The notes under the pieces were generated by a model that saw only the letters and a program-made list of their open reading frames with translations, was not told the DNA's origin and did not search any database. From Candidatus Fervidifonticultor sextus (GTDB lineage: Bacteria; Sysuimicrobiota; Sysuimicrobiia; Sysuimicrobiales; Humicultoraceae), in contig JAVKHQ010000012.1 in NCBI GenBank assembly GCA_031459875.1, positions 14,848-78,847 of the forward strand: a DNA stretch of 64,000 nucleotides, read 5' to 3'. This document shows, in pieces, positions 3,034-62,918 of this stretch. Position numbers and translations under genes: made by a program. Positions within the stretch are counted from its first letter, which is position 1, and every line of letters begins with the position of its first letter.

Positions 3034-3042
3034 TCCTGCCTC

Positions 3043-3753
3043 GTGCGCTCGCTGGTCCTGCTCCCCCTCTACAACGAGGCGCCGACGGTCGGCCGGGTCC
3101 TCGACCAGGTGCGCCGGCATGCGCCCCACTGCGAGATCCTGGTGGTGGACGACGGCTCCACCGACGGCTCGCCCGAGGTCCTGCGGGCCTATCCTGAGAT
3201 CACCGTCGTGACCCATGCCCAGAACGAGGGGTACGGGCAGTCGCTCATCGACGGGTTCGCCTACGGCCTGGCCCACGGCTACGACGCCGTGGTCACGCTG
3301 GACTGTGACGAGCAGCACGAGCCGCGCCAGATCCCGCAGTTCTTGGCCGCGCTGGAGGGGGCCGACATCGTCTCGGGCAGCCGCTACCTGGACCCCGGCC
3401 TGGGGGGCGATCCGCCGCCGCCGGACCGCCGCCGGCTCAACGAGGAGATCACGGCCAGGCTGAGGGCGCTGGTCGGCTACCCCATCACCGACGCCTTCTG
3501 CGGGTTCAAGGCCTACCGCGCCGGCGCGCTGCGGCGGCTCCACCTGACCGAGCCATCCTACGGGCTGCCGCTCCAGGTCTGGGTGCAGGCCGCGGCGGCG
3601 GGGCTGCGGGTCGTCGAGGTGCCGACCCCCCGCATCTACAAGAACCCCCAGCGCCGCTTCTGGGGCGGGCTGGACGACGTGGAGGTCCGGCGGCGATACT
3701 ACGAAGAGGTGATGGAGCGAGAGGTGGCCCGGTGGCGTCCATCCTGGCGATAG
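3043..3753 (+). CDS. Glycosyltransferase family 2 (DPM1-like)
   Basis: LPLYNE, VVDDGSTD, TLDCDEQH, SGSRY, TDAFCGFKAY. Confidence 0.88.
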   Translation: MRSLVLLPLYNEAPTVGRVLDQVRRHAPHCEILVVDDGSTDGSPEVLRAYPEITVVTHAQNEGYGQSLIDGFAYGLAHGYDAVVTLDCDEQHEPRQIPQFLAALEGADIVSGSRYLDPGLGGDPPPPDRRRLNEEITARLRALVGYPITDAFCGFKAYRAGALRRLHLTEPSYGLPLQVWVQAAAAGLRVVEVPTPRIYKNPQRRFWGGLDDVEVRRRYYEEVMEREVARWRPSWR

Positions 3754-4415
3754 GCCCTCACCCCGACGACGTGGAGATCGCCATGGGGGGGACCGTCTGC
3801 CTGCTGCTGGCCCAGGGGCACCAGGTGACCGTCTGCGACCTGACCAACGGCGAGCCCACCCCGATGGGAACCCCGCAGCGCCGCGCGGCCGAGGCCGCGG
3901 CGGCCGCGCGGCTCTTGGGCATCTCCCGCCGCATCACCCTGGACCTGCCCAACCGCGCGCTGGAACACACCCTGGAAGCCCGGCGCCGGGTCGCCGAGGT
4001 GATCCGCGAGGTGCGGCCCGATGCGCTCTTCGTGCCCTACTGGGTGGACGCGCATCCCGACCACGTGGCGGCCTGCTCGATCGCCGAGGCCGCCCGGTTC
4101 TGGGCCAAGCTGACCAAGACCGACATGCGCGGCGAGCCGCACTACCCCCGGCGCGTCTACCACTTCTTCAGCACCCACTACGCTCTGCATGTCAGGCCGT
4201 CGTTCATCGTAGACATCTCCCCCTACATGGAGACGAAGATGGCGGCGGTGGCGGCGTACGCGTCTCAGTTCAGTGCCGCCCGGGGCACCGCGTGGATCCT
4301 GGACGAGATCCGGGATGTCGGCCGCTACTTCGGGCGGCTCATCGCGCGCGACTACGGCGAACCGTTCGTCTGCCGGGAGGAGATCGGCGTGGTGCGGTGG
4401 GACGGCCTGATCTGA
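3732..4415 (+). CDS. bshB1: PIG-L family deacetylase, bacillithiol BshB1-like
   Basis: GPHPDDVE, DLTNGE...GT, DAHPDH, AYASQF, YGEPF motifs. Confidence 0.75.
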   Translation: MASILAIGPHPDDVEIAMGGTVCLLLAQGHQVTVCDLTNGEPTPMGTPQRRAAEAAAAARLLGISRRITLDLPNRALEHTLEARRRVAEVIREVRPDALFVPYWVDAHPDHVAACSIAEAARFWAKLTKTDMRGEPHYPRRVYHFFSTHYALHVRPSFIVDISPYMETKMAAVAAYASQFSAARGTAWILDEIRDVGRYFGRLIARDYGEPFVCREEIGVVRWDGLI

Positions 4416-5980
4416 TGGACGAGGCCGCCCCCGGGCCGATCGCGTGGCCCGCGCTGGACGTGGAGATCCCCCCGACCTCGCCGGAGGCGGTGGCCGTGCC
4501 GCCCATGCCGCGGTGGCTGGATCTGGCCCAGAGCAACCGTGCGGGCCTGGACGCCGAGTCCGCCGACATCGCCGGGATGCCGCTCGCCGACCTGCGGCGT
4601 CAGGCCCGCGCCCAGGCCGCTGCCGCCGCGGCCGCCTACACCCGCGGTCTGGGCCTCGAGGTCGCCGGGGGGCGCCCCGATCTCCTGCTGTGCACCGGGC
4701 ACCAGCCGACGCTCGTCCATCCGGGCATCTGGATCAAGTACCTGGCCCTCTCCCGTCTGGTGCCCCCCGGCGGGATCGGCCTCAGTCTCATCGTGGACAG
4801 CGACGCCGCCGACGAGATCTCAGCCGAGGTCCCGCGGGCCGACGGGCGGCTGCGCCGCGAACGGGTCGTCCTGGCCAGGGGCGGGCCGGAGGTGCCTGCC
4901 GAGCTCATCCCCGCCCCGACCGATGGAGACTGGCGGGCGTTCGTAGCCGAGGTCGACGCCCACCTCCAGACGCTCCAGGAGCCTGAGGTGGTCGCGGCTT
5001 GGGCGCGGGTGCGGGCGCTGCCACCGCCGCCGCGCGGCGCCGGCCTCTCCGGCGCGGTCACCTGGCTGCGGCGTACGCTGGAAGGGCGGCGGCCCTACCT
5101 CGACCTGCCGGTGTCGCAGGTCGCCGGCCTGCCCGCCTTCAGGCGGTTCGCCCTGGCGATCCTCGGGGATGCCCGCCGCTTCGCGGACCTCCACAACGTC
5201 TGCCTGGCGTCGTACCGGGAGCACTATGGCATCCGCACCGGTGCGCAGCCATTTCCAGACCTGATCGCAGACGCCGCCCGCGTCGAGGTCCCGTTCTGGT
5301 ACTTCGCCGACGGCCGCCGGTGGCCGCTCTTCGCCGACGTCCAGCGCGGCCTGCTCGTCGTCGACGGCCGTCCCGTGGGTGCCCTGCCCGCCGCCGTCGA
5401 CGACCCGGCCTTCACCGCACTGCCCATCCGGCCGCGGGCGCTGGTGCTCACGGCGTTCGCCCGCCTTGTGCTGTCCGACCTGTTCATCCACGGCGTGGGC
5501 GGCGGCCGATACGACCGAGCGACCGACGCCATCATCCGCGCGTTCTTCGGCGTCAGGCCGCCGGCCTATGCGGTCGTGACGGCGACGCTGTGGCTGCCGT
5601 TCGCCTCCGGCGCGCCGTCTGTCGCGGAACGGGTCCGGCTGCAGCGGCTGCTGCTGGACCTGCAGCACAATCCCGATCGGTACCTGCCCCAGGATGCGGG
5701 GCCGCACCGGGCGCTCGTCGAGGAGAAGTGGGCGCTGATCCGCAAACTGGACCAGTCCGGCCTGACCCGGCGCGAGCGGCGAGCGGCGACACAGCGCATC
5801 CGCGAGATCAACCTGATCCTCCAGGTGGTGGTGGCCGATCAAGTCGCGGAGGTCCAGGAGGCCCTGCGCGCCCTGGACCGCCGCGATCAGGATGCCGAGG
5901 TCACCGGCTACCGCGGCTTTCCGTTCCTGCTCCATCCCGTCGAGTCGGTCGAGGCGCTGGTCGATGCCCTGGGCCGTTGA
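4415..5980 (+). CDS. Hypothetical protein, possibly a distant BshC (cysteine-adding enzyme)-like protein
   Basis: ATG overlaps bshB1 stop (TGATG); TGHQP..HPG.W.K, RPRAL, FIHGVGGGRYD motifs and a C-terminal coiled coil; the BshC link is inferred from architecture and context. Confidence 0.5.
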   Translation: MDEAAPGPIAWPALDVEIPPTSPEAVAVPPMPRWLDLAQSNRAGLDAESADIAGMPLADLRRQARAQAAAAAAAYTRGLGLEVAGGRPDLLLCTGHQPTLVHPGIWIKYLALSRLVPPGGIGLSLIVDSDAADEISAEVPRADGRLRRERVVLARGGPEVPAELIPAPTDGDWRAFVAEVDAHLQTLQEPEVVAAWARVRALPPPPRGAGLSGAVTWLRRTLEGRRPYLDLPVSQVAGLPAFRRFALAILGDARRFADLHNVCLASYREHYGIRTGAQPFPDLIADAARVEVPFWYFADGRRWPLFADVQRGLLVVDGRPVGALPAAVDDPAFTALPIRPRALVLTAFARLVLSDLFIHGVGGGRYDRATDAIIRAFFGVRPPAYAVVTATLWLPFASGAPSVAERVRLQRLLLDLQHNPDRYLPQDAGPHRALVEEKWALIRKLDQSGLTRRERRAATQRIREINLILQVVVADQVAEVQEALRALDRRDQDAEVTGYRGFPFLLHPVESVEALVDALGR

Positions 5981-6659
5981 GGTGGACGGGGTCGTCAAGG
6001 CCTACGACCACCGGCCGGTGCTCCGCGGGGCCAGTCTCCGCGTGCGGACCGGACAGACCGTGGCGGTGCTGGGCGCCAATGGATCCGGCAAGACCACGCT
6101 GCTGCGCCTGGTGGCCACGCTCTCTTCGCCGACCCGCGGCACGATCCGGCTCTTCGGCCGCCCGGCGGCGCCGCTGCCTGAGGTGCGGCGGCGGATCGGG
6201 CTGGTGCCGCACGAGTCGCTGCTCTACGACAGCCTGACCGTGGAGGAGAACCTGCGCTTCTTCGCAGGGCTGTACGGACTCCCCCGCCGACGGGTGGACG
6301 ACCTGCTGGACCGCACGGCCCTGCGGCCCCTGGCCGGCCGCCGGGCGCGCGTGCTCTCCCGTGGCCAGCGGCAGCAGGTCAACCTGGCCCGCGCGTTGCT
6401 GCACGACCCCGAGTTACTGATCCTCGACGAGCCGTACACCGGGCTGGATCTGGGGGCCGCCGACCGCCTGACCGCGATGCTGCGGGATGCGGTGGGGCTG
6501 GGGCGAACGGTGCTCCTCACGACGCACGACCTGGCCCAGGCGCAGGACCTGACAGCTGGCATCGCGGTGCTGCTCGACGGGCGCCTGACCGAGGTCATGC
6601 CCGCCGACAGCCTGGACGAGGGTCGCCTGGCGGCCTGGTTCCGCGAAGGCCGACGATGA
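5964..6659 (+). CDS. ccmA: Heme ABC exporter ATP-binding subunit CcmA
   Basis: Walker A GANGSGKTT, LSRGQ, LILDEPYTGLD; followed by ccmBC. Confidence 0.88.
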   Translation: MPWAVEVDGVVKAYDHRPVLRGASLRVRTGQTVAVLGANGSGKTTLLRLVATLSSPTRGTIRLFGRPAAPLPEVRRRIGLVPHESLLYDSLTVEENLRFFAGLYGLPRRRVDDLLDRTALRPLAGRRARVLSRGQRQQVNLARALLHDPELLILDEPYTGLDLGAADRLTAMLRDAVGLGRTVLLTTHDLAQAQDLTAGIAVLLDGRLTEVMPADSLDEGRLAAWFREGRR

Positions 6660-7303
6660 GGGCCATCTGGCTGCTGGTCAGCAAGGATCTGCGTCTGGAG
6701 TGGCGGACGCGCGAGATCGTGACCACGGTGGGCCTGCTGGCGCTGCTGCTGGTCATCGTGCTCGGGGCCGCCCGGCCCGACCCCGAAGGCGCGCCCGCCG
6801 CCATGTGGGTGACCTACGCGTTTGCGGCCACGCTAGGCTTCACGCGGACCTTCGCCCTGGAGCGCGACCACCTGACCGGGCTGCGGCTGGCGCCGATCGA
6901 TCGCGGCGCCATCTACGCCGCGAAGGCGCTGGCCAACTGGGTGATGCTCGCCGTCGTCCAGGCGGTCTCGCTCCCGGTCTTCGGCGCGCTCTTCACCGAG
7001 GCGATCTGGGCCCGCGTGCCTGCCCTCGCCCTGCCCATGGTCCTCGGGGGCGTCGGGCTGGCAGCCATCGGCACGCTCTTCGGCGGGCTGATCGTCCAGA
7101 CGCGGCTGCGCGAGGCGCTGCTGCCGATCCTGATGCTGCCGGTGGCGCTGCCGCTGCTCATCGCGGCCACGAGCGCCACGGCCGCGATTCTCGATGGGGA
7201 GGCCATCGCGGCCGTCGGCGCGCAATTGCAGTTGCTGGGGGCCTTTGATATAGTGTTTATCACCACCAGCGTGGTGCTTTTCGACGTGGTCCTGGAGGAG
7301 TGA
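6656..7303 (+). CDS. ccmB: Heme exporter permease CcmB
   Basis: KDLRLEWR, hydrophobic multi-TM, REALLPILMLP. Confidence 0.9.
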   Translation: MRAIWLLVSKDLRLEWRTREIVTTVGLLALLLVIVLGAARPDPEGAPAAMWVTYAFAATLGFTRTFALERDHLTGLRLAPIDRGAIYAAKALANWVMLAVVQAVSLPVFGALFTEAIWARVPALALPMVLGGVGLAAIGTLFGGLIVQTRLREALLPILMLPVALPLLIAATSATAAILDGEAIAAVGAQLQLLGAFDIVFITTSVVLFDVVLEE

Positions 7304-7315
7304 CGCCTGCCCGCC

Positions 7316-7975
7316 GTGATTCGTCCACTCCTGGTCGTCGCCACGGGCCTCATGCTGGTCGGCGCGGCGTGGGCGCTGCTGGTGGCACCCGAAGAGGCGT
7401 TTCAGGGAGTCCCCCAGCGGATCATGTACATCCATGTGCCCAGCGTCATCACCGCCTACGCAGCCCTCGCCGTGGTGTTCGTCGGCAGCGTGCTCTTCCT
7501 CTGGCGGCGCGATGCCCGCTGGGATCACCTCGCCCACGCCGCGGCCGAGCTGGCGGTGCTGTTCATCTCGATGACGTTGATCTCGGGTGCCATCTGGGGC
7601 AAGCCGGTGTGGGGCACCTGGTGGACCTGGGATGCCCGGCTGACGACCACGCTGATCCTGTGGTTCATCTACGTGGGCTACCTGATCGTGCGCGCGTGGG
7701 CCCCGGGCTCCCGCGGCGCGCGAACCGCGGCGGTCATCGGCATCGTGGGTGTGCTGGACGTCCCGCTCATCCACTGGTCCGCGATTCTGCTGCGCACCCT
7801 GCACCCGCAGCCCACCGTGTTGCGGCCTGAAGGGCCGGCGCTGCCCGCCAGCATGCTGGTCCCCCTGGTGGTGAACCTCGCTGCCTACCTCCTGATGTTT
7901 GTGGCGCTGCTTGCGATCCGGGTGCGTCAGGAGCGCACGCTGACCGCGCTCGTCGACGCCCTGGAGGGAGCCTAG
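7316..7975 (+). CDS. ccmC: Heme exporter CcmC
   Basis: RIMYIHVP, tryptophan-rich WGKPVWGTWWTWDARLT, TLHP. Confidence 0.93.
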   Translation: MIRPLLVVATGLMLVGAAWALLVAPEEAFQGVPQRIMYIHVPSVITAYAALAVVFVGSVLFLWRRDARWDHLAHAAAELAVLFISMTLISGAIWGKPVWGTWWTWDARLTTTLILWFIYVGYLIVRAWAPGSRGARTAAVIGIVGVLDVPLIHWSAILLRTLHPQPTVLRPEGPALPASMLVPLVVNLAAYLLMFVALLAIRVRQERTLTALVDALEGA

Positions 7976-7979
7976 CCCG

Positions 7980-8111
7980 GTGGGCTTCGTCGCTGCCGCC
8001 TATCTGATCGTCACCGCCCTCTTCGCGGGTTATGCCCTGACGCTGGCTGGCCGGCAGCGGCTCATCGCGGACCTGGCCGAGGCGGCCGGCCTGGAGGAGG
8101 CGCGGCGATGA
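7980..8111 (+). CDS. ccmD: Small membrane protein, CcmD-like (43 aa; not in ORF track)
   Basis: GTG 7980; MGFVAAAYLIVTALFAGYALTLAGRQRLIADLAEAAGLEEARR; lies between ccmC and ccmE, stop overlaps ccmE ATG. Confidence 0.75.
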   Translation: MGFVAAAYLIVTALFAGYALTLAGRQRLIADLAEAAGLEEARR

Positions 8112-8506
8112 GCGCCACGAAGCGCAAACTGCTGGTCGGCTCGCTGGTCATCGTCGCGGCACTGGGCTTCGTGGCCTATCAGGGCGTGCGTTCGTCGATG
8201 GTCTACTACCTGACCCCGACCGAGTTCAAGAACCGACCGGATCTTGCTCACCAGAAGGTCCGCATGGCCGGGGAAGTTGTCCCGGGATCGGTGCAGCGGT
8301 CGGGAGGGACGGTTCGTTTCACCATTACCGACGGCACCACGCTCTACGCCGTGTCCTACGGGGGGCCGCTTCCGGACCTCTTCGCCGAAGGCCGACAGGT
8401 GCTGGTCGAGGGGCGCCTGGACCGGCAGGGGATGCTGGTGGCCTCGCAGGTGATCTCGACGCACCCATCGGAATACCAGGAGAAGCACCCGGACCGGCAA
8501 CCGTGA
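8108..8506 (+). CDS. ccmE: Heme chaperone CcmE
   Basis: N-terminal TM, VYYLTP.E, G.LPDLF.EG..V.VEG, heme-binding HPSEY. Confidence 0.9.
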   Translation: MSATKRKLLVGSLVIVAALGFVAYQGVRSSMVYYLTPTEFKNRPDLAHQKVRMAGEVVPGSVQRSGGTVRFTITDGTTLYAVSYGGPLPDLFAEGRQVLVEGRLDRQGMLVASQVISTHPSEYQEKHPDRQP

Positions 8507-8670
8507 CGCCGGGCGTCCTGCTGATCATGGTCGCGATGGTCTGGGCGGTCGTGCTGGTCGGTCTGCTCAGGCTGCTGGCGGTGATGGAGCGCGTCGAGCG
8601 CCTGGCCCCCGACCAGGGGGGGAGGGTGCCCGCCCGCTCGCCGACCGTCGGGGGGATGCGCCGTGGGTGA
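8503..8670 (+). CDS. Small single-TM protein (55 aa; second CcmD-like peptide; not in ORF track)
   Basis: GTGA overlap with ccmE stop; MTPGVLLIMVAMVWAVVLVGLLRLLAVMERVERL...; stop overlaps ccmF start. Confidence 0.6.
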   Translation: MTPGVLLIMVAMVWAVVLVGLLRLLAVMERVERLAPDQGGRVPARSPTVGGMRRG

Positions 8671-10669
8671 GATCGGTCGCTTCGCCCTCCAGGCCGGGGT
8701 CGTCGTCGCCCTCTACGGCTTGGTCGTGACGGTGCTGGGCATCCGGTGGCATCACGGCGGGTTCCTGGAGGCGGGCCGGCGGGCTGCGGTCGTCTGGGCG
8801 CTGCTGATGGCGCTGGCCAGTGCCGCGCTGTTCGCCGCCTTCCTGTCCAGGGATTTCTCCGTGCGCTTCGTCGCTGCGGCCAGCGAGTCGACCCAGTCGC
8901 TGTTCTACACCGTGACGGCGTTCTGGGGCGGGCACGACGGGGCCCTGCTCCTGTGGGCGCTGATCCTGGCGGGGTACCTGGTGGCCGGGATCCGGAGCCT
9001 GCGGCACCATCCCGACTTCCAGGCGCCGGCAGCGGCGACGCTGTTGCTGATCGCGGCGTTCTTCTCGCTCCTGCTGGCTGCGGCCAGCAACCCCTTTGCG
9101 CCCATGATCCCGCCGCCGCCGGACGGACAGGGTCTCAACCCGCTGCTGCGCAACCCCTGGATGGCTGCCCACCCGCCGACGCTGTACCTGGGCTTTGTGG
9201 GGATGAGCATGCCGTTTGCGGTGGCGGTCGCCGCCCTGGTCACCGGTCGGCTCGACGACACCTGGATCGTACTGGCGCGACGGTGGGTCGTGGTCGCCTG
9301 GATGTTCCTCACGCTGGGCCTGCTCTTTGGGGCGAAGTGGTCGTACGTGGTGCTGGGGTGGGGAGGGTACTGGGCCTGGGACCCGGTGGAGAACGCGGCC
9401 TTCATGCCCTGGCTGACCGCCACGGCGTTCCTGCACTCGATCCAGATTCAGGAGCGCCGCGGCATGCTGGCCACCTGGAACGTGGCCCTGGTCCTGATCA
9501 CCTTCGGCCTGACGATCTTCGGGACGTTCCTGGTCCGCAGCGGGGTGCTGTCCTCGATCCACGCGTTCGCCCAGTCGCCGATCGGTTACCTTTTCCTGGG
9601 CTTCCTGGCGGTGCTGCTGGTGGGGTCCTTTGCGCTCCTGGCCTGGCGGTGGGACGCCCTCCACAGCCGCGGGACCGTGGAGTCCGTGGTCAGCCGGGAG
9701 ACCGCGTTCCTCGCCAACAACCTGCTGTTCGTCGTCGCCGCCGTGGTCGTGTTCCTCGGGACGATTTTCCCGGCCCTCACCGAGGCCTTCCGCGGGGTCA
9801 AGATCAACGTGGGGCCCACCTACTTCAATATGGTGATGATCCCCATCGCCGTGGGCATCCTGCTGCTCATGGGGGTGGGGCCGCTGCTGCCGTGGCGGCG
9901 GGCGACCCCCGAGCAGCTCTCCCGCAACTTCATGCTCCCCGGGGCTGGCGCCCTCCTGGTCGCCCTGGTGCTGGCACTGCTCGGCGTCCGCTCCAGCGGC
10001 GCGCTGCTGGTCTTCGCGCTGGCGGCCTTCGTTTTCGGCACCATCGTCCTGGAGGCGGCCAGGGGGACGGCGGTGCGGATGCGGCGGGGCGAGGGACCGG
10101 CTGTGGCCCTGGTCCGTCTGGTGGTCCGCAACCGCCGCCGGTACGGCGGCTACACGGTGCACCTCGGCATCCTGCTCATGCTGGTGGGGATTGCGGGCAG
10201 CAGCGCCTTTGCCACGCAGGGGCAGGCCATGGTGCGGCCCGGTGAGCGGTTTTCCGTGGCCGGCTATACCCTGGAGTACGGCGGCCTCAGCCACTTCGAG
10301 CAGCCGGGGATCGACATCACCGAGGCGTCGGTAAGGGTCTGGGCCGGATCGAAGCCGCTGGGGGTCCTGCGGCCGCAGCGGTTGTTCTACCGCACCGCCG
10401 AGCAGCCGATGCACCACGTGGCGATCCGCTCCTCGGTGCGCGAGGACCTTTACGTCATCCTCTCGGAGTGGACGCCGGACGGTCGGGCGCTGATCCGCGT
10501 GCTCGTCCACCCGCTGGTCTCCTGGTTGTGGGCCGGGGGCGCAGTCGTCGCCCTGGGCGTGATCCTGGCGGTCCTGCCCGAGACGTGGCGGCGCCTCCAC
10601 CCCGCCGCCGCCCCGGTGCGTCGGCGTCCGCTGCCGGTCCCCGTCGGCGACTCCCCCGGGGCGTCGTGA
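8663..10669 (+). CDS. ccmF: Cytochrome c heme lyase CcmF
   Basis: GLNPLL.NP.M..HPP.LY.G, WGGYWAWDPVENA, RSGVLSSIHAFA, GGYTVHLG. Confidence 0.96.
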   Translation: MGEIGRFALQAGVVVALYGLVVTVLGIRWHHGGFLEAGRRAAVVWALLMALASAALFAAFLSRDFSVRFVAAASESTQSLFYTVTAFWGGHDGALLLWALILAGYLVAGIRSLRHHPDFQAPAAATLLLIAAFFSLLLAAASNPFAPMIPPPPDGQGLNPLLRNPWMAAHPPTLYLGFVGMSMPFAVAVAALVTGRLDDTWIVLARRWVVVAWMFLTLGLLFGAKWSYVVLGWGGYWAWDPVENAAFMPWLTATAFLHSIQIQERRGMLATWNVALVLITFGLTIFGTFLVRSGVLSSIHAFAQSPIGYLFLGFLAVLLVGSFALLAWRWDALHSRGTVESVVSRETAFLANNLLFVVAAVVVFLGTIFPALTEAFRGVKINVGPTYFNMVMIPIAVGILLLMGVGPLLPWRRATPEQLSRNFMLPGAGALLVALVLALLGVRSSGALLVFALAAFVFGTIVLEAARGTAVRMRRGEGPAVALVRLVVRNRRRYGGYTVHLGILLMLVGIAGSSAFATQGQAMVRPGERFSVAGYTLEYGGLSHFEQPGIDITEASVRVWAGSKPLGVLRPQRLFYRTAEQPMHHVAIRSSVREDLYVILSEWTPDGRALIRVLVHPLVSWLWAGGAVVALGVILAVLPETWRRLHPAAAPVRRRPLPVPVGDSPGAS

Positions 10670-10950: not shown

Positions 10951-11924
10951 TCCCCCGCCGGGCACTGGCGCTGGCCGCCTTCCTCGGGGCGCTCCTGGCG
11001 GGGGAGATGGGTTCCGCAGACGGCGCCACCCCGGGGCTGCCCCTCGTATCCCCGGCGCCGGCCGGGCCTGCAGGCGGCGGCATCACCGGCCTGGTGCGCA
11101 ACGGGACCACCGGGCAGCCGACGCCGGGCGTCCTGATCCAGCTGGTGCTCATCGGTCCACAGGGGCCCCAGGTCGCCGCCGAGACCCGCAGCGATGCGCG
11201 GGGGCAGTTCGCCTTCCGCGGCCTGGTCGACGGCCGGTACCTGCTCCAGGCCCGCTATCAGGGCGTCTCGTATGCCACACACGCCGTGCTGAGCGGCGGT
11301 GCGGCCGCAGATGTCGTCGTGCAGGTCTTCGACGCGTCGCCGAGCGTGCCGTTGCGCCTCGGGCTGCTGGGCGTGGCCGTCGACGTGCGCGCAGGGTACG
11401 TGCGCGTCTCAGAGGTGGCGCACCTGCAGAATCCCACAACCCGGACGCTGCTCGGCGAGGTCGTCATCCCGCTCCCCCGCGGTGGCCGCTACGTCACCTT
11501 CCTGGAGGGGTTCCACCAGCCGCGGGCACGGGACGCGCAGATCGCCGACCGCCTGATCGTCCGGCCCGGCGGCCACCAGCTGGCCTACGCCTACAGCCTG
11601 CCCGGCAGCGGCGAGGTCTCCCTCGACCGCCGGCTGGTGTGGCCGACCGACCGCGTCGAAGTCTTCGTGACGGCGCCGGCCGAAGCGCGCTCGCCCCGGC
11701 TGCAGCCGATGCCGGCGGTGACCAACGAGGAAGGGCGGACCTTTACCCGCGCCTCCGGCCGCGCGGTGCCCCCGGGCGACCTCCCGATCTCCGTCATCGG
11801 TGTCCCGGACGCGCGGCTCTGGACGGCCCCGGCGGCCGCCGGGACGCTGGCGGTGGTGCTCACCGTGGGGTTGATGTGGGCCATCCGCAGGGCAGGAGTT
11901 GTCACCGGCGCGCAGAACCCGTAA
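10947..11924 (+). CDS. Exported, C-terminally membrane-anchored protein with carboxypeptidase-regulatory-like beta-sandwich domain
   Basis: Signal peptide, ITG.VRNGTT, TRSDARGQFAF..L..G.Y, C-terminal TM. Confidence 0.65.
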   Translation: MIPRRALALAAFLGALLAGEMGSADGATPGLPLVSPAPAGPAGGGITGLVRNGTTGQPTPGVLIQLVLIGPQGPQVAAETRSDARGQFAFRGLVDGRYLLQARYQGVSYATHAVLSGGAAADVVVQVFDASPSVPLRLGLLGVAVDVRAGYVRVSEVAHLQNPTTRTLLGEVVIPLPRGGRYVTFLEGFHQPRARDAQIADRLIVRPGGHQLAYAYSLPGSGEVSLDRRLVWPTDRVEVFVTAPAEARSPRLQPMPAVTNEEGRTFTRASGRAVPPGDLPISVIGVPDARLWTAPAAAGTLAVVLTVGLMWAIRRAGVVTGAQNP

Positions 11925-11931
11925 TCACGTC

Positions 11932-12837
11932 GTGAGGCTGTGCGGGCCGTCTGGCACTCTCCGGTCCTTCCTGGTGCTCGTGGCGTTCGCAATGGTGGCA
12001 GCCGGCTGTCAGCCGACCCTCAGGGTCCGGGGCCAGGCGGCGACCGTGGGCGCCGGGCTGCCTCAGGCGCCCGCCGCGAAGGCGCTGGCGCCGACCAACC
12101 CGCGGCCGTCGGCCGAGCGCGGACGGGCCGTCTACGAGCGGGCCTGCTGGCCCTGTCACGGCAACACCGGGTTGGGCGACGGGCCGGCGGCCGCCGGCCT
12201 GGTCGCCCCGCACAAGAACCCGATGACCGACTTCTTCGGCATGTTCGGCATCAAGATCAAGGGCGAAGACCTGCCGTCGCGGCCGGCCAACTTCCACAAT
12301 CAGGTGGCCATGCGGCTGAATGCGCCGTTCTCGCTGTTCGAGGTGATCAAGCTGGGGCGTCCCCACACCGCCATGCCGGCCTTCAGTCCCAAGGCGGCCT
12401 ACGGTGCCAACCGGGGGTTCCCGACGCTGACCGACGCGCAGATCTGGGACGTGCTCTTCTACGAGTGGACCTTCGCCACGGCCCCGGCCGCCGTGGAGCG
12501 GGGCCGGCGGATCGACCAGGAGCAGGCCATCGAGATCGGTGGGCAGTCGACGACGTGCGCGGCCTGCCACGGGCCCGCCGGCGACGGCCGGGGCGGCGCC
12601 CGCAGCGCCGAGATGGCGGCGCGGGTCTGGGGGTGGGACAAGGGCGTCGGTCCAGGCATCTTCACCGACGTCAACCGCATGCTGCAGCAAAAGCCCGCAG
12701 AACTCTTCCAGCGCATCATCCGCGGCCACGGGCTGATGCCCGCGTACCGCGATCTTTTGAGTGAAGACGACGTGTGGGCTCTGGTAGACTATCTGTGGAC
12801 GTTCGTCTACGACTACCGGCCGGCGCGGGGGCAGTAG
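11932..12837 (+). CDS. Diheme c-type cytochrome, probable lipoprotein; cytochrome c subunit of Rieske/cytb operon 1
   Basis: Lipobox-like VAAGC; CWPCH and CAACH each followed by an MPA distal Met; start uncertain (11899-11992). Confidence 0.85.
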   Translation: MRLCGPSGTLRSFLVLVAFAMVAAGCQPTLRVRGQAATVGAGLPQAPAAKALAPTNPRPSAERGRAVYERACWPCHGNTGLGDGPAAAGLVAPHKNPMTDFFGMFGIKIKGEDLPSRPANFHNQVAMRLNAPFSLFEVIKLGRPHTAMPAFSPKAAYGANRGFPTLTDAQIWDVLFYEWTFATAPAAVERGRRIDQEQAIEIGGQSTTCAACHGPAGDGRGGARSAEMAARVWGWDKGVGPGIFTDVNRMLQQKPAELFQRIIRGHGLMPAYRDLLSEDDVWALVDYLWTFVYDYRPARGQ

Positions 12838-12841
12838 GGAG

Positions 12842-13504
12842 ATGGCGCAGGACCCAGGGGTGGACCGCAGGCGGTTCTTGAAGATGGCCGCGAGCCTGCC
12901 CATCGCCGGAGGCCTGATCGCTTTTGCCTCGCCCCTGCTGCGCTTCCTCAAGCCCAACGTGGACCCCTTCGCCGTGCTCACCCCCACGGCCGAAGACGTC
13001 CCGACGGGGGAGCCGGTGGTGGCGGCCGCGCTGTCCGAGATCCCCAGGCCGTGGGACTTCAAGTACTTCGTCTTCACCCAGAAATACCCGCAGTACACGC
13101 CCGAGGGCTTCAAGACGCAAGCGGTGCCCGGCGTCGTCATCCGGCTGCCGCGGAAGATCCGCCTCCCGTGGGCGTGGGTGCGCCAGACGGGCGAGACCCC
13201 GCAGTTCGAGGAGAGCGAGATCATCGCGTTTTCGCGGATCTGCCCGCACCTCGGTTGCATCTACAACTACGTGCCGGAGTGGCGGGAAATCACCTCCGGG
13301 TACGGCGGCTACGTTCCCGAGCCGAGCCGCCGGCATGCCCTGATGGGCTGCCCGTGCCACCTGAGCATCTACGACCCGGCGGACCCGGAGCAGCCGGGCC
13401 GGGTGCTCTCGGGTCCGGCGCCGCGGCCGCCGCGCACGTTCTTCTACGAGATCCAGCAGGAGCGGATCCTGGTCAAGCGCGTGGAACCCGGCGGGATCGC
13501 CTGA
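12842..13504 (+). CDS. Rieske [2Fe-2S] protein with Tat-type anchor
   Basis: DRRRFLK; CPHLGC and CPCHLSIY boxes; GPAPRP. Confidence 0.92.
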   Translation: MAQDPGVDRRRFLKMAASLPIAGGLIAFASPLLRFLKPNVDPFAVLTPTAEDVPTGEPVVAAALSEIPRPWDFKYFVFTQKYPQYTPEGFKTQAVPGVVIRLPRKIRLPWAWVRQTGETPQFEESEIIAFSRICPHLGCIYNYVPEWREITSGYGGYVPEPSRRHALMGCPCHLSIYDPADPEQPGRVLSGPAPRPPRTFFYEIQQERILVKRVEPGGIA

Positions 13505-13531
13505 TGAGGGAGTGGTCGGTCCGGTGATGCG

Positions 13532-14686
13532 ATGACCGCGATGCTGGCCAATCTCCAGGAGTGGTACCGCGACCGGCGGGCGAAGCTCGACCTGTTCGAC
13601 GAGACCCTGGTCGCCCAGCAGGCGAATCCCCTCTACCTGCTGGGGCCGATGCTCTACTACTTCTGGATCGTCACCGTTGCCAGCGGCGTGATCCTCATGT
13701 TCTGGTACGAGCCGACGCCCACCGGCGCCTACAACTCGATCCTCCACATCCAGCACGAGGTGCCGCTGGGCTGGCTGTGGCGCGGGGTCCACAAGTACGC
13801 TGCCGACGGCGTGATCATCACCATCATCCTGCGGATCTACCGGATGTACTTCCTGGGCGAGTACAAGAAGCCCGGGGAACTTTCCTGGATCTGGGCGTTC
13901 GCCGGCCTGATCCTGGGCATGATCTCGGGCATTACCGGCTACCTCCTGATCTGGAACCAGCGGGCATTCTGGGCGGCGAAGACCGTGCTGACCGTCCCGG
14001 TCTACTTCGACGAGTTGACCGCGAAGATTCCGGTGATCGGCGAACGGTTCCAGCTGGGCTCCATGATCGCATACCTGTTCCTGGGCGGCCCGGCCGTCGG
14101 CGCGGCCACGTTGACCCGCTTCTACGCCCTGCACTTCGGCATCTCGCTGGTCCTGCTGATTGTGGCCGAGGTCTTCTACTACCGCACCCGCCGCCGGCGC
14201 CTCAACATGTCGCTGTTTCCCGTCCTGCTGTTCTCGGCGATGCTGGTTTTCATCAGCTGGGCGCTGCCGGCCGAACTGGGCCGGCGGGCTGACCCCAACC
14301 GGACCCCGCTGCCGATCCTCTCGGACTGGTACTTCCTGGCCCTCTACCAGTACGTGAAATACACGCCCCCGCTGTGGGCCGGGCTGGGCCCGGGCCTGTT
14401 GATCGGGTTCGGGATGCTGGTGCCCTTCCTGGATCGCAGCAAGGGTCGGCGGCCGCTGGAGCGCCCGTTCTTCTTCGTCGTCGGGCTGCTGGCGCTGGCG
14501 TACTTCCTGATCTTCACGACCCTCATCATGTTCAACATCGCGGTCATCGAGCGCGAGCCGCCCATCGTCCTGCTGGTCACCACGGTGGTCCTGCTGGCGG
14601 CGTTCATCTGGGAGGTGCGGTACCGCCGCCGTCAGGCTCAGGCAGCGGCGCCGCCGCCACATCCGGCGCGGGCCCCTGCCCACTGA
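13532..14686 (+). CDS. Cytochrome b (b + subunit IV fused), lacking heme bH histidines
   Basis: GWLWRGVH, YKKPGELSW, TGYLLIWNQ.AFWA, TLTRFYALH, ILSDWYF (PEWY equivalent). Confidence 0.9.
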   Translation: MTAMLANLQEWYRDRRAKLDLFDETLVAQQANPLYLLGPMLYYFWIVTVASGVILMFWYEPTPTGAYNSILHIQHEVPLGWLWRGVHKYAADGVIITIILRIYRMYFLGEYKKPGELSWIWAFAGLILGMISGITGYLLIWNQRAFWAAKTVLTVPVYFDELTAKIPVIGERFQLGSMIAYLFLGGPAVGAATLTRFYALHFGISLVLLIVAEVFYYRTRRRRLNMSLFPVLLFSAMLVFISWALPAELGRRADPNRTPLPILSDWYFLALYQYVKYTPPLWAGLGPGLLIGFGMLVPFLDRSKGRRPLERPFFFVVGLLALAYFLIFTTLIMFNIAVIEREPPIVLLVTTVVLLAAFIWEVRYRRRQAQAAAPPPHPARAPAH

Positions 14687-14692
14687 GGCGCC

Positions 14693-14971
14693 ATGCGGAC
14701 GCTGCGCTCCTGGGCGGTGTTTGTGGCGGCGGTCGTCTCGTTCTCGCGGCTGTGGCAGGGGGTCCGCGCGGCGCTGGAGGGCGGGCGCCTCTATGGCCCG
14801 CTCGAGGCCCTGTTCTGGATGGGCCTGTTCCTGGGGAGCATGGGGTACCTGGCCTTTCTGATCTACGCAGCGGACCGGGCCGCCGGCCGCACGCGCCGGC
14901 CGATGCCGCTGTTCGACCGCCTGCTGGACCGCCGCACGGGAACCGGTGAGGTGGGGGCCCGTGGGCGCTGA
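14693..14971 (+). CDS. Small two-TM membrane protein in Rieske/cytb operon 1
   Basis: GAGG RBS, two hydrophobic segments, tight operon packing. Confidence 0.65.
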   Translation: MRTLRSWAVFVAAVVSFSRLWQGVRAALEGGRLYGPLEALFWMGLFLGSMGYLAFLIYAADRAAGRTRRPMPLFDRLLDRRTGTGEVGARGR

Positions 14972-15188
14972 ACGGGCGCGCTATGCCGCCGCCGTCTTTG
15001 TCCTGGCGGGCATCGGGGCGGCCTGCGCGGTGGTCATCGTCCTCGGCGAGATCCTGGGGGGCCCGCAGCGGCCCTGGTTCTGGCAGGCCGGCGGCGCGGC
15101 GCTGGGCCTGATCTTCGTGGTCTACGGCCTGATCCTGCTGTTGCTGCGGAAGATGGGGCTGGTCGGCCCGCGGCGGGCCGAGCGCTAG
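14961..15188 (+). CDS. Small two-TM membrane protein in Rieske/cytb operon 1
   Basis: Two hydrophobic segments, overlaps upstream stop; start uncertain (14946/14961). Confidence 0.6.
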   Translation: MGAERARYAAAVFVLAGIGAACAVVIVLGEILGGPQRPWFWQAGGAALGLIFVVYGLILLLLRKMGLVGPRRAER

Positions 15189-15199
15189 GGGGGGGCGGC

Positions 15200-16357
15200 G
15201 TGTACCGGCGGACGCTTTCGGCCCTGCTGCGCTGGACCCTGCGGTTGGACGTGTTCGTCAACCGCGTCTGGCCGTCCGACCTGAACCCGCTGTACTACAC
15301 TGGCGGACTCGCCAACCTGTTCCTGTTCATCCTGGTGCTCTCAGGCCTCTTCATCTTCTTCTACTACGTGCCGAGCCTGGGAGGGGCGCACGCGTCGGTG
15401 GCCTACCTCACGGAGCAGGTGCCCTACGGCGGGTTGATCCGGGGTATCCACCGGTATGCGGCCGACGCGTTCATCGTGGCGGCGCTGCTGCACCTGTTCC
15501 GCAACTGGTTCACCGACCGCTACCTGTTCGCGCGGGACTCCCCGTGGATCTCCGGCATGTTCATGCTGCTGCTGGGCGGGTTCGTCGGCGCAACCGGCTA
15601 CATCCTGGTGTGGGACGAGCGGGGGCTGGTCGTCCTCTCGGTCTTCGTCGACATGCTGAAGTCCATCCCCGGTGCCGGCGACTTCCTGGCCGCCCTGCTG
15701 GTGGGCGGGTCGGGCCTCTCGGAGGGCACGTTGCCCCGCGTGCTGCTGCTGCACGTGGGGCCGGCCTCGGCACTCTACCTCCTCCTCTGGTGGCACTACG
15801 TGCGGCTGCGCCACCCCAAGGTCTGGCCGCCCGCCACCTGGGTGCTGATCTCGCTGGGGGTCGTCACGCTGCTGGCCGCGCTGGTGCCCGCTGTCAGCGG
15901 CACGCCCGCCGTCCCGGGCGCTGCGCCCCGCGCCATGGCCGTCGATGTCTTCTTCCTGCTGCCGTTCTGGCTGGCCGGCTACCTGCCGTCCATCGTGATC
16001 GTCGGGGCGGTCGCCCTGCTGTTCGCGGGCGGTTTCGTGATCCCCTACGTCAGCCGCGAGTCCCCCCGGCAGATGGGCGTGCGGCACGCCGGGGTGGCCC
16101 AGGTGATCGACGGGAACTGCACCGGGTGCGAACTGTGCTACTACGACTGCCCGTACAACGCCATTGTCATGGTGCCCTCGCCCTACCCTGGGCTGACGCG
16201 GGCCGCGGCGAACCGGAAGCTGCTGGCTGTCGTGGTCGACTCCCGGTGCGTGGAGTGCGGCATCTGCATCGGCGCCTGCCCCTTCGAGGCGCTGGAACTG
16301 CCGGGGTTGCTGGAGGCCGACGTGCGGCGGCGGATTGCCGAGGCGGTGCGCGCATGA
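15200..16357 (+). CDS. Cytochrome b fused to a C-terminal 2x[4Fe-4S] ferredoxin domain
   Basis: LNPLYYTG, RGIH-x13-H, H-x13-H in helix D; CTGCELCYYDCP and CVECGICIGACP. Confidence 0.88.
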   Translation: MYRRTLSALLRWTLRLDVFVNRVWPSDLNPLYYTGGLANLFLFILVLSGLFIFFYYVPSLGGAHASVAYLTEQVPYGGLIRGIHRYAADAFIVAALLHLFRNWFTDRYLFARDSPWISGMFMLLLGGFVGATGYILVWDERGLVVLSVFVDMLKSIPGAGDFLAALLVGGSGLSEGTLPRVLLLHVGPASALYLLLWWHYVRLRHPKVWPPATWVLISLGVVTLLAALVPAVSGTPAVPGAAPRAMAVDVFFLLPFWLAGYLPSIVIVGAVALLFAGGFVIPYVSRESPRQMGVRHAGVAQVIDGNCTGCELCYYDCPYNAIVMVPSPYPGLTRAAANRKLLAVVVDSRCVECGICIGACPFEALELPGLLEADVRRRIAEAVRA

Positions 16358-16836
16358 CGGACCCTGCCCCCCCACCCGGCGGGGGAGCGCCGCGCGTGGT
16401 GGGCTTCGTGTGCGACTGGGCGGTCTCCACGGCAGGCCTCACCGATGCCGCCGGCCGTCTGCTCGCCCATCCGTCGGTGGTGCTGATCCGCGTCCCCTGC
16501 TCGGGATTCATCCGGCCCTCGTGGCTGGAGGAGACGCTGCGGGATGGGGCGGATGGAGTCTTCGTCGTGGGGTGTCCGTACGGCGACTGCCTCAACCGCG
16601 AGGGAAACTACCTCATGCGGGAGCGCATCGAGCAACTGCAGCGGCGGCTGCAGCGCCGGAAGGTCGAGCCGGAACGGCTGTCCATGCTGGCCCACGGCCT
16701 CCACGACCGAGAGGCGTTCCTGGCCGACGTCGGGGCGCTGGTGGAGGCGCTGGAGCGGCTGGGGCCCGCGGCCAGGCCCGTCCCGCTGCGGGCCGCGGTC
16801 CCGGCAGCGGCCCCCGCTGAGGAGGGGAAACCGTGA
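16354..16836 (+). CDS. MvhD/FlpD-like [2Fe-2S] protein (hydrogenase delta-subunit family)
   Basis: VGFVCDW, IRVPCSG, GADGVFVVGCPYGDC...GN, EPERL; ATGA overlap. Confidence 0.85.
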   Translation: MTDPAPPPGGGAPRVVGFVCDWAVSTAGLTDAAGRLLAHPSVVLIRVPCSGFIRPSWLEETLRDGADGVFVVGCPYGDCLNREGNYLMRERIEQLQRRLQRRKVEPERLSMLAHGLHDREAFLADVGALVEALERLGPAARPVPLRAAVPAAAPAEEGKP

Positions 16837-16937
16837 AGCGCCCGCTGCGTGTATGGGTCTCCTACATCCTCTTCTACCTGTTCTTCTTCATCCTGCTGCT
16901 GTTCGTGGCATCGTTCGGGCTCATCGCCGAAGCCTGA
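16833..16937 (+). CDS. 34-aa single-TM peptide (not in ORF track)
   Basis: GAGGAGGGG RBS; GTGA overlap with mvhD-like stop; MKRPLRVWVSYILFYLFFFILLLFVASFGLIAEA. Confidence 0.65.
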   Translation: MKRPLRVWVSYILFYLFFFILLLFVASFGLIAEA

Positions 16938-16941
16938 CCCG

Positions 16942-17919
16942 GTGAGCACCGACCTCGACCGGATCTACGCGCCCATCGCCGAGGATCTGCGTGCCCTGGG
17001 CGAGTTGCTGCGCCGCGAACTCGCCACCGACGACCCCTTCATCGGCGAACTGATCGGTCACGTGCTGGGCAGCCGGGGCAAACTGGTCCGGCCGGCGCTG
17101 GCGCTGCTGTCGGCGGCGGCAGCCGGCGGTGCCGATGAACAGCGGCTGCACCTGGCCGGGACGGTCGAACTCATCCACATCGCGTCGCTCATCCACGACG
17201 ACATCATTGACGCCGCGGACCTGCGGCGCGGGATGTCCACGGTCAACATGCTCTGGGGCAATCAGGTGGCCGTGCTGCTGGGCGACTACCTGTTTGCCAC
17301 CGCCTTCGACCTGGTGAGCCGGATCCGTCATCCGGACGTGGCGCCGGCGATCGCCACGGCGGCGGTCGCCATGAGTCAGGCCGAGATCCAGGCCGTCCGC
17401 ATCGGGGGCGAGCCTTACGAGGACGAGGCCACCTACTACAGCATCATCGAGGGGAAGACCGCGCGGCTCTTCGCGGCGGCGTGCCGGGCGGGGGCGCTGA
17501 TCGCCGGCGCGCCGCCGGCGATCGCCGACGCCCTGGAGGCCTTCGGGCTGCAGTGGGGGATGTCGTTCCAGATCACCGACGACGCCCTGGACCTGACCGG
17601 CAACCGCCAGGAACTCGGCAAGCCCATCGGCAGCGACATCGACACCGGCCGGGTGACCCTGCCGGTCATCGTGGCCCTCCGTCAGGCCTCCGAGGCCGAC
17701 CGGCAGCGCCTGTCGGCCCTGGTCCGCCACCCCTCCGGCGATGGGGCCCAGGACGAACTGCGCGCGCTGGTGGACCGCTACGGCGGGCTCCGCGCGGCCC
17801 TGGAGTCGGCGCGCAGGTTCGCAGACCAAGCCCGCGTGGCGCTGACAGACCTGCCCCCGAGCCGGGCCAAGGACAGCCTCCAGGACCTGGCGGACTTCGT
17901 CCTGGTGCGGGCGCGTTAG
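16942..17919 (+). CDS. Polyprenyl diphosphate synthase (HepT/IspB-like)
   Basis: GKLVRP, LIHDDIID...RRG, GKTARLF, FQITDDALD, GKP.G.D...G..TLP; start at GTG 16942. Confidence 0.92.
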   Translation: MSTDLDRIYAPIAEDLRALGELLRRELATDDPFIGELIGHVLGSRGKLVRPALALLSAAAAGGADEQRLHLAGTVELIHIASLIHDDIIDAADLRRGMSTVNMLWGNQVAVLLGDYLFATAFDLVSRIRHPDVAPAIATAAVAMSQAEIQAVRIGGEPYEDEATYYSIIEGKTARLFAAACRAGALIAGAPPAIADALEAFGLQWGMSFQITDDALDLTGNRQELGKPIGSDIDTGRVTLPVIVALRQASEADRQRLSALVRHPSGDGAQDELRALVDRYGGLRAALESARRFADQARVALTDLPPSRAKDSLQDLADFVLVRAR

Positions 17920-21458: not shown

Positions 21459-22301
21459 CTACTGGCCCGCGCGCCAGCGGTGGGGGCGGTGGCAGACGGT
21501 GCACGGCGTGGTCTTCAGCACCTCCGCCGGGTGGATCTGCGGCTTCGGGCGCTCGTGGCACGTCGTGCACACCACGACGGGTCGGGCCTGTTCGTGCGGC
21601 CGGTGACACTGGCTGCAGGCGAACTGCATCGGGGCATCGGGAGGCCACGACCCGACCTCGCGCGGGATGAGCCGGTGACACTCGAGGCAGGTCTGTCGGC
21701 CCGGACGCAGCGGCGTCTCGGCCCGCAGGAACTCATGGCAGTCCACGCAGTGCTGGTCGGCCATGGCCCGAATCTTGATGGCCCGTTCACCGCGGGTCTG
21801 GGCCACGTGGCAGGTCCCGCAGATCTCGGTGGGCGGGGTGAAGCGGTGGATGCTGGGCGCATGGCAGACCACGCACTGGATCTGGCGCTGCTGCGCGTGG
21901 ATCCGGTGCCCGGCGGTGGCCGCCACCTGCCGCCACCGGGGATCGCCGCTCTCATGGCAGCGGGCGCAGACTTCCTTGGGGACCACGGCGTGCCGGCCGA
22001 CCCGCTGCGGCTGACGGACCACAAACGTGATGACCTGCCGGGCGCTCTCGACGATGCTCGCCTCGTGACAGGCGTGGCAGTCCACCGTCCGGTGCTCGCT
22101 GGTCCGCCAGCGGTCCCAGGCCGGTTCCATGATGTGGCAGGACCGACAGAAGGCGGGGTCGTTCATGGTGTAATCCACCCCGCGCGCGACCCCGTAGACG
22201 GCGGCCGCCAGCAGGCCCAGACCCAACACCACGGCTCCGGCGGCCACCGGGCGCGGCCAGGCCCGCATGCGCTGGGACAGCGCGCGCAGCCACGTGCGCA
22301 C
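21459..22301 (-). CDS. Membrane-anchored decaheme cytochrome c with NapC/NrfH-like N-terminus
   Basis: N-terminal TM, YT...FCRSCHIM (CxxCHxM), 10 CxxCH motifs; start uncertain. Confidence 0.88.
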   Translation of the reverse strand: MRTWLRALSQRMRAWPRPVAAGAVVLGLGLLAAAVYGVARGVDYTMNDPAFCRSCHIMEPAWDRWRTSEHRTVDCHACHEASIVESARQVITFVVRQPQRVGRHAVVPKEVCARCHESGDPRWRQVAATAGHRIHAQQRQIQCVVCHAPSIHRFTPPTEICGTCHVAQTRGERAIKIRAMADQHCVDCHEFLRAETPLRPGRQTCLECHRLIPREVGSWPPDAPMQFACSQCHRPHEQARPVVVCTTCHERPKPQIHPAEVLKTTPCTVCHRPHRWRAGQ

Positions 22302-54303: not shown

Positions 54304-54322
54304 GCGCACCGGGAGAGCGGCC

Positions 54323-55222: not shown

Positions 55223-55223
55223 C

Positions 55224-62251: not shown

Positions 62252-62288
62252 AGGCCATCCGGCAGGCCGGTGGGCCCAGGAGGGACCG

Positions 62289-62915: not shown

Positions 62916-62918
62916 CCG

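Follow-up and report, generated by a model that had tools for sequence, protein, structure and literature searches.

We analysed a 64,000-nt stretch of the genome of Candidatus Fervidifonticultor sextus (assembly GCA_031459875.1, contig JAVKHQ010000012.1, positions 14,848 to 78,847), hereafter called the window, and found that it carries an operon for Rieske/cytochrome b proteins with two unlike cytochromes b. The first of these, b1 (13532..14686, + strand), lacks both ligands of the high-potential haem bH and keeps a motif of the type found at quinol oxidation (Qo) sites, while the second, b2 (15200..16357, + strand), keeps the ligands of both haems, has a degenerate Qo motif and is fused to a ferredoxin domain. 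On balance, we think it somewhat probable that b1 and b2 form, in place of the usual homodimer, the heterodimeric core of a single Rieske/cytochrome b complex, with a low-potential chain that would run from the low-potential haem bL of b1 to bL and bH of b2 and on to iron-sulfur clusters and an MvhD-like subunit. The source assembly comprises 3.05 Mb and is 96% complete, and the G+C content of the window is about 0.70. The lineage, Candidatus Fervidifonticultor, is an uncultured hot-spring member of Sysuimicrobiota, a phylum earlier called CSP1-3 and frequently labelled Armatimonadota.

b1 is a protein of 384 amino acids with about eight transmembrane helices that matches Pfam Cytochrome_B (109.5 bits) and Cytochrom_B_C, the latter being matched in b1 only and not in b2. 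An earlier reading of this DNA, made from the letters and translations without database searches (hereafter the sequence-only reading), had described both cytochromes b down to single codons, and all of the codons and open reading frames (ORFs) that it named were found as described. The two bL ligands of b1, H87 (CAC at 13790) and H201 (CAC at 14132), are present, and both bH ligands are replaced, one by R101 (CGG at 13832) and the other by F215 (TTC) and Y216 (TAC). Alignment with b6 chains of solved structures using phmmer placed H87 and H201 on the first and second ligands of haem bp, R101 on a bn His ('ilriyrmy' in b1 against 'ilhvfrvy') and Y216 on the second bn ligand. The same alignment put the four His of b2 on the four b6 ligands, in agreement with what the sequence-only reading had proposed for both proteins. 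Furthermore, b1 retains Qo-type features, namely Q143 and W147 (each in 32/32 family rows) and an SDWY motif at residues 264-267, in which Ser replaces the Pro of PEWY.

The loss of the bH ligands is not peculiar to the window. Among the 120 best b1 matches (72-100% identity, a set that includes the protein of the window itself), H87, R101, H201, E213 and the Ser, Asp and Trp of the SDWY motif were each found in 120/120, and none had His at position 215 or 216. A search of 50%-identity cluster representatives retrieved about 20 clusters of the b1 family at 240-380 bits and 39-51% identity, with ordinary cytochromes b scoring at most 145 bits in the same search. These b1-family representatives carry Arg at position 101, once replaced by Lys, and Glu at position 213 in all cases. 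Across the 80 genome loci described below and the query, position 101 reads Arg in 76 rows and Lys in 3 and is cut off in 2, leaving His in 0/79 covered rows. The sequence-only reading had named retention of the bH His in homologues of b1 as a finding that would speak against it, and no such retention was observed in either set. Because the pattern is invariant in relatives, it is due neither to chance nor to a sequencing error, and we rejected decay or misreading of b1 as its origin. Outside the b1 family, the representatives covering the position have His-His, except P0369 and P0370. These two form a separate cytochrome b lineage, with Arg at the helix-B bH position, both helix-D His kept and an RPPWYLL motif.

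b2 is a protein of 385 amino acids (Cytochrome_B, 98.2 bits; Fer4 families at residues about 297-377) in which a b6-like haem domain of four helices is followed by two more helices, where the Qo-motif position lies, and by a C-terminal ferredoxin domain. Its His 84, 98, 185 and 199, arranged as H-x13-H twice, are the residues that align with the four ligands of b6, and its C-terminal 2x[4Fe-4S] domain has the motif CxxCxxCxxxC twice (307-317 and 350-360), which makes eight Cys. In close relatives, 121/121 sequences (the window and 120 matches at 65-95% identity) have the four His, all eight Cys and Asp249, and in the locus alignment the His and the Cys are kept in every covering row among 71. 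The full set of four His expected of a cytochrome b is therefore present in b2 and absent from b1, and the complex has it only when both proteins are combined. The sequence-only reading had further noted VDVF at the PEWY position of b2 (residues 248-251). The motif is degenerate rather than erased, as Asp249 is invariant in close relatives and many b2 relatives in the locus alignment read DW[FL][FY], a form similar to the PDWF motif of a known clade of cytochrome b-FeS proteins. By hydropathy and homology b2 has about six hydrophobic helices, against about eight in b1. The N-terminus of cytochrome b lies on the n side of the membrane, and with six helices the ferredoxin domain of b2 should then be cytoplasmic; it would have to be so because it has no export signal.

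The losses in the two proteins go beyond the haem ligands. We compared columns conserved in at least 80% of 43 ordinary cytochromes b with 32 b1-family and 21 b2-family rows, omitting the long-branch row P0274 and assigning P0307, P0326 and P0374 to b2 according to the tree described below. In addition to the two bH His, changed in b1 and kept in b2, a helix-C Gly is Ala122 in b1 and Gly119 in b2, and an Arg in the loop after helix B is Gly115 in b1 and Arg112 in b2; we take these two positions to belong to the bH side. Conversely, the Gln and the Trp of helix cd1 are kept in b1 (Q143 and W147) and are Glu and Leu or Val, respectively, in b2. The Tyr of PEWY is kept in b1 (Y267) and is Phe in b2, and the Trp is kept in b1 (W266) and in most of the b2 family, the protein of the window having Val. 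Helix cd1 and PEWY presumably form part of the Qo site. On these assignments, b1 appears to have lost residues of the n side and of bH, and b2 residues of the Qo site, a pattern of complementary losses.

Aligned with each other, b1 and b2 are 30% identical over 290 residues, and SDWY falls opposite VDVF. In an unrooted tree built from 97 rows of the four-helix domain with a quick IQ-TREE run, b1 forms one clade (33 rows) and b2 another (21 rows), with supports of 98 and 100, respectively, in the Shimodaira-Hasegawa-like approximate likelihood ratio test (SH-aLRT), and both stand apart from the ordinary cytochromes b, among which a third cytochrome b of the window falls. The separate clades indicate that b1 and b2 are old partners and not a recent duplication in decay. 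A recent tandem duplication was thus excluded by the two old clades together with the low identity. Nine long or odd representatives gave cytochrome b domains only and no b1-b2 fusion, no search having been aimed at longer proteins.

Both cytochromes b are encoded in a run of seven genes (11899-16836), all on the + strand and 3' of cytochrome c maturation genes (ccmABC, CcmE, CcmF). The gaps between them are, in order, 4, 27, 6, -26, 11 and -4 nt, and with their overlapping stop and start codons the seven genes are one operon. The first (11899..12837, +) encodes a dihaem c-type cytochrome, probably a lipoprotein, that matches Cytochrome_CBB3 and Cytochrom_C in two stretches; 60/60 aligned relatives have both CxxCH motifs as well as Cys37, and we take the sequence AAGC to be its lipobox. 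This cytochrome, whose gene ends 4 nt before that of the Rieske protein, is likely the high-potential acceptor of the latter. The Rieske [2Fe-2S] protein (12842..13504, +) has an N-terminal RRRFLK twin-arginine-like signal or anchor and a Pfam match just under the cut-off (19.7 against 20.3 bits), and its cluster ligands and disulfide Cys (C134, H136, C139, C170, C172 and H173) are kept in 75/75 relatives. The last gene (16354..16836, +) shares its first 4 nt with the end of b2 and encodes an MvhD/FlpD-like protein (FlpD match of 101 bits, cut-off 22.3), in which the [2Fe-2S] ligands of the FlpD domain C20, C74 and C79 are kept in 61/61 relatives and C49 in 60/61.

The association of b1 with b2 was then followed across genomes. 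The b1 alignment was used to scan one genome per species, and the best 80 of 335 related stretches were kept. As the loci were picked by peptide patterns specific to b1, they test what accompanies b1 and not the reverse. Both b2 and MvhD were present in every locus that extends 2600 nt or more beyond the 3' end of b1 (59/59); the other 21 are cut by contig ends, and the start of b2 is still visible in 11 of them. Upstream, a Rieske gene was found in 72/73 loci with at least 900 nt of DNA. The loci span Sysuimicrobiota, Symbiobacterium (a metagenome-assembled genome (MAG) named S. thermophilum, locus L073), Fimbriimonadaceae, Anaerolineae and Vampirovibrionales/Melainabacteria. In five distant loci (L073, L080, L082, L084 and L085, at about 3000-7300 in each), which belong to Symbiobacterium, Fimbriimonadaceae, Vampirovibrionaceae and two further MAGs, a cbb3-type oxidase set lies directly 5' of the Rieske-b1-b2-MvhD module. 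This set comprises, in order, a COX1/CcoN-like protein, a FixO-cytochrome c fusion and a cytochrome c, and the genes 3' of MvhD are unrelated. The presence of a cbb3-type oxidase upstream indicates that the high-potential end of the module is respiratory.

Within the phylum, we surveyed 94 genomes, including that of the window, which are related and do not count as independent observations. b1 was present in 81/94 as an intact gene (E < 1e-70) and b2 in 81/94; both genes were found in 79, neither in 11, b1 only in 2 and b2 only in 2. The 11 genomes devoid of both genes include 8/8 of one genus, and each of the four discordant genes is no more than about 800 nt away from the end of its contig, at the side on which its partner would be expected. 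These counts include two unpublished genomes (G016 and G024) with both genes in each; when they are left out, 77/92 have both. The sequence-only reading had asked whether loss of the bH His goes together with a cytochrome b-ferredoxin gene, and our results confirmed that it does, at every testable locus and with discordance at the genome level at contig ends only.

A cytochrome b that holds bL only can pass the second electron of quinol oxidation either back or across the dimer, and this favours a heterodimer in which b1 is paired with b2. Rhodobacter can grow with a bc1 dimer that has H212N (bH ligand) in one half and G158W (Qo site) in the other, electrons passing over the bL-bL bridge, but not with the symmetric H212N enzyme (Ekiert et al. 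2014, PMC4152375; this article and PMC4122944, PMC12954380, PMC6349859 and PMC5600118 are covered here in part, and statements on them refer to those parts). A dimer of b1 only would therefore be left with no outlet for bL. The heterodimer is favoured because the natural pair matches this engineered pattern and because b2 is the sole haem protein of the operon able to take the electron. In such a complex, quinol would be oxidised at the Qo site of b1, the first electron passing via the Rieske cluster to the dihaem cytochrome c. The second electron would reduce haem bL of b1, which has no bH below it, cross the dimer interface to bL of b2, continue through bH of b2 and, on the cytoplasmic side, reach the fused 2x[4Fe-4S] domain and the [2Fe-2S] cluster of MvhD. 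In this way, the complex would join the quinone pool and a high-potential chain to cytoplasmic iron-sulfur carriers, instead of or besides reducing quinone at a Qi site. A stronger version of this proposal, in which the complex III is obligately asymmetric and bifurcation at the Qo site of b1 drives the low-potential electron by bL-bL transfer into b2 and, by way of the ferredoxin domain of b2 and MvhD, out to cytoplasmic carriers, is offered tentatively and strikes us as rather unlikely. If it were true, respiration with a high-potential acceptor would directly make a low-potential reductant (ferredoxin-level or Hdr-linked), which could feed the folate/Wood-Ljungdahl-type genes of the window.

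Modelling, which the sequence-only reading had suggested as a check for the Rieske protein, both cytochromes b and MvhD together, gave weak support for the pair. A complex prediction of b1, b2 and three haems with custom alignments scored 0.47, against 0.00 for the best of three controls, with at least 78% of contacts agreeing between runs and a partner pLDDT (predicted local distance difference test) of at least 76. The mark used was reached by 116/157 solved complexes and 2/215 mismatched pairs, and it was reached with a score of 0.60 or less by only 18 of the 157 solved complexes, as well as by both mismatches that passed. The prediction thus passed its controls, but the pass was weak and gave no interface, and it may reflect memory of, or likeness to, solved cytochrome b dimers. 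The heterodimer put forward in the sequence-only reading is consistent with the complementary losses, the co-occurrence, this weak two-chain pass and the engineered precedent; the pairing itself is what we infer from them.

Several observations weigh against the heterodimer, beginning with the weakness of the model and its missing interface. Because Asp249 of b2 is invariant and Trp is often kept at its Qo motif, b2 may have a quinol site of its own. Cytochromes b with a 4Fe-4S domain and MvhD also occur with no Rieske gene in the cluster, as in the 'PDWF-FeS clade' (Kao and Hunte 2014, PMC4122944), and a unit of the b2 kind can therefore work without b1. Neither an HdrA nor a hydrogenase gene, the partners expected of an MvhD/FlpD protein, is present in the operon or 3' of MvhD in the five distant loci, and no acceptor gene is conserved at that place in L073, L080, L082, L084 and L085. 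The scan of loci, moreover, bears on the best 80 of the 335 related stretches. Finally, the exception devoid of a Rieske gene upstream, L017, holds a second b1 copy (82% identical; 5963-9224) that adjoins ChrB, a chromate transporter and a DUF1080-like protein, in a MAG that carries the full operon elsewhere (L072).

Some of these points would be accommodated by two separate modules, namely a Rieske/b1 homodimer without a Q cycle, in which bL would be a dead end or a safety store, and a homodimer of b2 with its ferredoxin domain and MvhD that would on its own link the quinone pool to cytoplasmic iron-sulfur carriers, as is presumably the case for cytochrome b-FeS proteins that lack a Rieske partner. 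The Rieske-less cytochrome b-4Fe-4S-MvhD fusions (PMC4122944), the Asp249 and frequent Trp of the b2 motif, the stand-alone b1 paralogue in L017 and the weak complex model all fit this arrangement. We nonetheless find it improbable, given that symmetric loss of bH abolishes bc1 function in vivo (PMC4152375), that b1 was never found without b2 in the 59/59 testable loci, discordant genomes being confined to contig ends, and that the losses are complementary rather than random.

A different use of the heterodimeric core is also conceivable, in which quinone at a Qi site of b2 would be reduced by electrons that come across the dimer from b1 and its Qo site, and the ferredoxin/MvhD arm would let low-potential donors of the cytoplasm add the second electron there. 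The complex would then work as a carrier:cytochrome c oxidoreductase and translocate protons by a Q cycle, in a manner resembling ferredoxin input at haem cn of b6f; ferredoxin feeding haem cn has been proposed (PMC5600118). b2 keeps bH and the n-side residues Gly119, Arg112, Pro206 and Pro210, the distant modules sit behind cbb3-type oxidase genes as a plain respiratory complex III would, and the lack of a conserved acceptor gene 3' of MvhD points in the same direction. Against these stand the absence from b2 of the Cys of haem ci (YYTGG, against FYC-GG in b6 sequences) and the behaviour of His205, which lies near a Qi-ligand position and is invariant among close relatives only, without being among the columns conserved at 90% or more in the wide alignment. 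We judge such a Q cycle unlikely to be the actual function. Far less credible still is the notion that b1 is decaying or mis-sequenced, or that unusual ligands still allow it to hold two haems. A His remains at the second helix-D position in 6/81 locus rows and in some distant representatives, as a relic of the site. However, Arg101 and Glu213 are invariant in 120/120, b1 is intact in 81/94 genomes of the phylum, and the conserved helix-C Gly is replaced in b1 as well; to our knowledge, Arg is not a haem axial ligand. The b1:b2 heterodimer with an outlet to iron-sulfur clusters therefore remains the reading that we favour.

Two small membrane proteins are encoded between b1 and b2. The first (14693..14971, +; 92 amino acids) has one hydrophobic segment by hydropathy and matches no Pfam family, and the second (14946..15188, +; 80 amino acids) has two hydrophobic segments and a sub-threshold match to DUF3995. 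Both have BLASTP relatives in the same place at many related loci (not counted), and both are possible subunits of the complex. Distant b1 proteins (P0243, P0248 and P0254; loci L077-L087) are longer, with 465-623 amino acids and hydrophobic C-terminal extensions that match no Pfam family; these extensions may replace the two small proteins of the window. The gene that follows MvhD (16849..17919, +) encodes a polyprenyl diphosphate synthase (polyprenyl_synt, 214 bits), which may serve in quinone side-chain synthesis and is probably not a subunit of the complex. Many loci of the Sysuimicrobiota type (not counted) have this gene 3' of MvhD, and none of the five distant loci scanned does.

Elsewhere in the window, on the + strand, lies an ordinary Rieske/cytochrome b set, consisting of a Rieske protein (32604-33050) and a cytochrome b with four His and a KPEWYF motif (33047-34108), flanked by a 1050-amino-acid molybdopterin oxidoreductase (29374-32526) and a multihaem cytochrome c (34116-35405). 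b1 and b2 are therefore not the only complex III of this genome. One good haem-copper oxidase is encoded elsewhere in the genome, on contig C23. The genome also has further MvhD copies, one of them beside a 1738-amino-acid HdrA-like protein in the region 55224-60858. This protein and its neighbour belong to a folate/Wood-Ljungdahl methyl-branch cluster on the + strand (51884-63875) with a MetV-like protein, formate-tetrahydrofolate ligase, MetF, FTCD_C and FolD. The HdrA-like fusion comprises a cyclic nucleotide monophosphate (cNMP)-binding domain, three pyridine-nucleotide-disulfide reductase stretches and Fer4, and is accompanied in the cluster by its own MvhD (60430-60858) and by an HdrBC-like CCG protein. 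We take the cluster to resemble the MetFV-HdrABC-MvhD arrangement of Moorella. On the - strand, a 280-amino-acid ORF with about ten CxxCH motifs (21459-22301), a membrane-anchored multihaem cytochrome c, lies between a LuxR-type response regulator and a 917-amino-acid GAF histidine kinase.

The physiological role of bL-bL transfer in complex III has been described as an open issue (PMC4152375). Such transfer has so far been tested only with engineered asymmetric enzymes, and nature appears to have fixed a cross-inactivated design of the same kind, with a bH-less half that has the Qo site and a Qo-degenerate half that has bH, and to have kept it for long in at least five bacterial lineages. If b1 and b2 do pair, they would offer a ready-made system for studies of inter-monomer transfer, would illustrate how two specialised subunits can take the place of a homodimer, and would provide, after anammox, a second case of a Rieske/cytochrome b complex possibly passing a low-potential electron to the cytoplasm. 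The module occurs in a MAG named Symbiobacterium thermophilum (L073), so that it may become testable in a cultivable relative. Furthermore, the module has been read as an ordinary 'b6f' or 'complex III/IV' in Melainabacteria, which bears on arguments about the origin of b6f. In that work, petB and petC beside oxidases were annotated as complex III/IV, and the parts of the article covered here pass over the presence of two cytochromes b without comment (Matheus Carnevali et al. 2019, PMC6349859).

Full-text literature searches, with supplements outside their scope, retrieved no paper on a natural Rieske complex with two cytochromes b or on a bH-less cytochrome b paired with a cytochrome b-FeS protein. 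A paper on Sysuimicrobiota (PMC11604079) does not mention cytochrome b, Rieske, complex III, bc1 or MvhD, and PMC5600118 does not mention Melainabacteria, Symbiobacterium, paralog or heme ligands. With canonical bc1, b6f and the Firmicute-type menaquinol:cytochrome c reductase, the complex shares the Rieske ligands, a c-type cytochrome and, in b1, the D-W-Y part of the Qo motif, and its cytochrome b folds align to b6 and bc1 chains (E values of 1e-33 and 4e-29). It differs from them in having two unlike cytochromes b, of which b1 lacks the bH ligands and b2 combines a degenerate Qo motif, six helices, a fused 2x[4Fe-4S] domain and an MvhD subunit.

The PDWF-FeS clade resembles b2 in its Fe-S fusion and its MvhD, and the b2 family often reads x-D-W-F/L-F/Y. 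In contrast, MvhD is here a separate, overlapping gene, the motif of the window is VDVF, and b2 always comes with a Rieske protein and b1; this comparison is one of features (PMC4122944). Cytochromes b without the full set of four His had been discarded from that study ahead of its analysis, and proteins of the b1 type could therefore not appear in it. It also reports that the second bH His ligand is systematically missing from the cytochrome b of Pyrobaculum, which was read as loss of the haem; unlike in b1, only one ligand is lost, in a single archaeal genus, and the parts of the article covered mention no partner cytochrome b.

The engineered bc1 shows the same pattern of losses as b1 and b2, with Qo-bL-bL-bH as the sole route. 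However, the engineered enzymes, to which heterodimers made from two plasmids (also cited there) may be added, are laboratory constructs of one protein in which the electron ends at the Qi site (PMC4152375). The b1/b2 pair is natural, old and present in several phyla, and its electrons are proposed to end at iron-sulfur clusters. As for function, the Rieske/cytochrome b (R/b) complexes R/b-2 and R/b-3 of the anammox bacterium Kuenenia carry an extra cytoplasmic redox subunit, and it has been proposed, as yet unproven, that the low-potential electron of their Qo site goes to a cytoplasmic acceptor and not to a Qi site (PMC12954380). Their cytoplasmic module is an NAD(P) oxidoreductase rather than a ferredoxin domain with MvhD, and in the parts of the article covered no second, bH-less cytochrome b is described. 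As a functional idea, R/b-2 and R/b-3 are the nearest to the electron path proposed here for b1 and b2.

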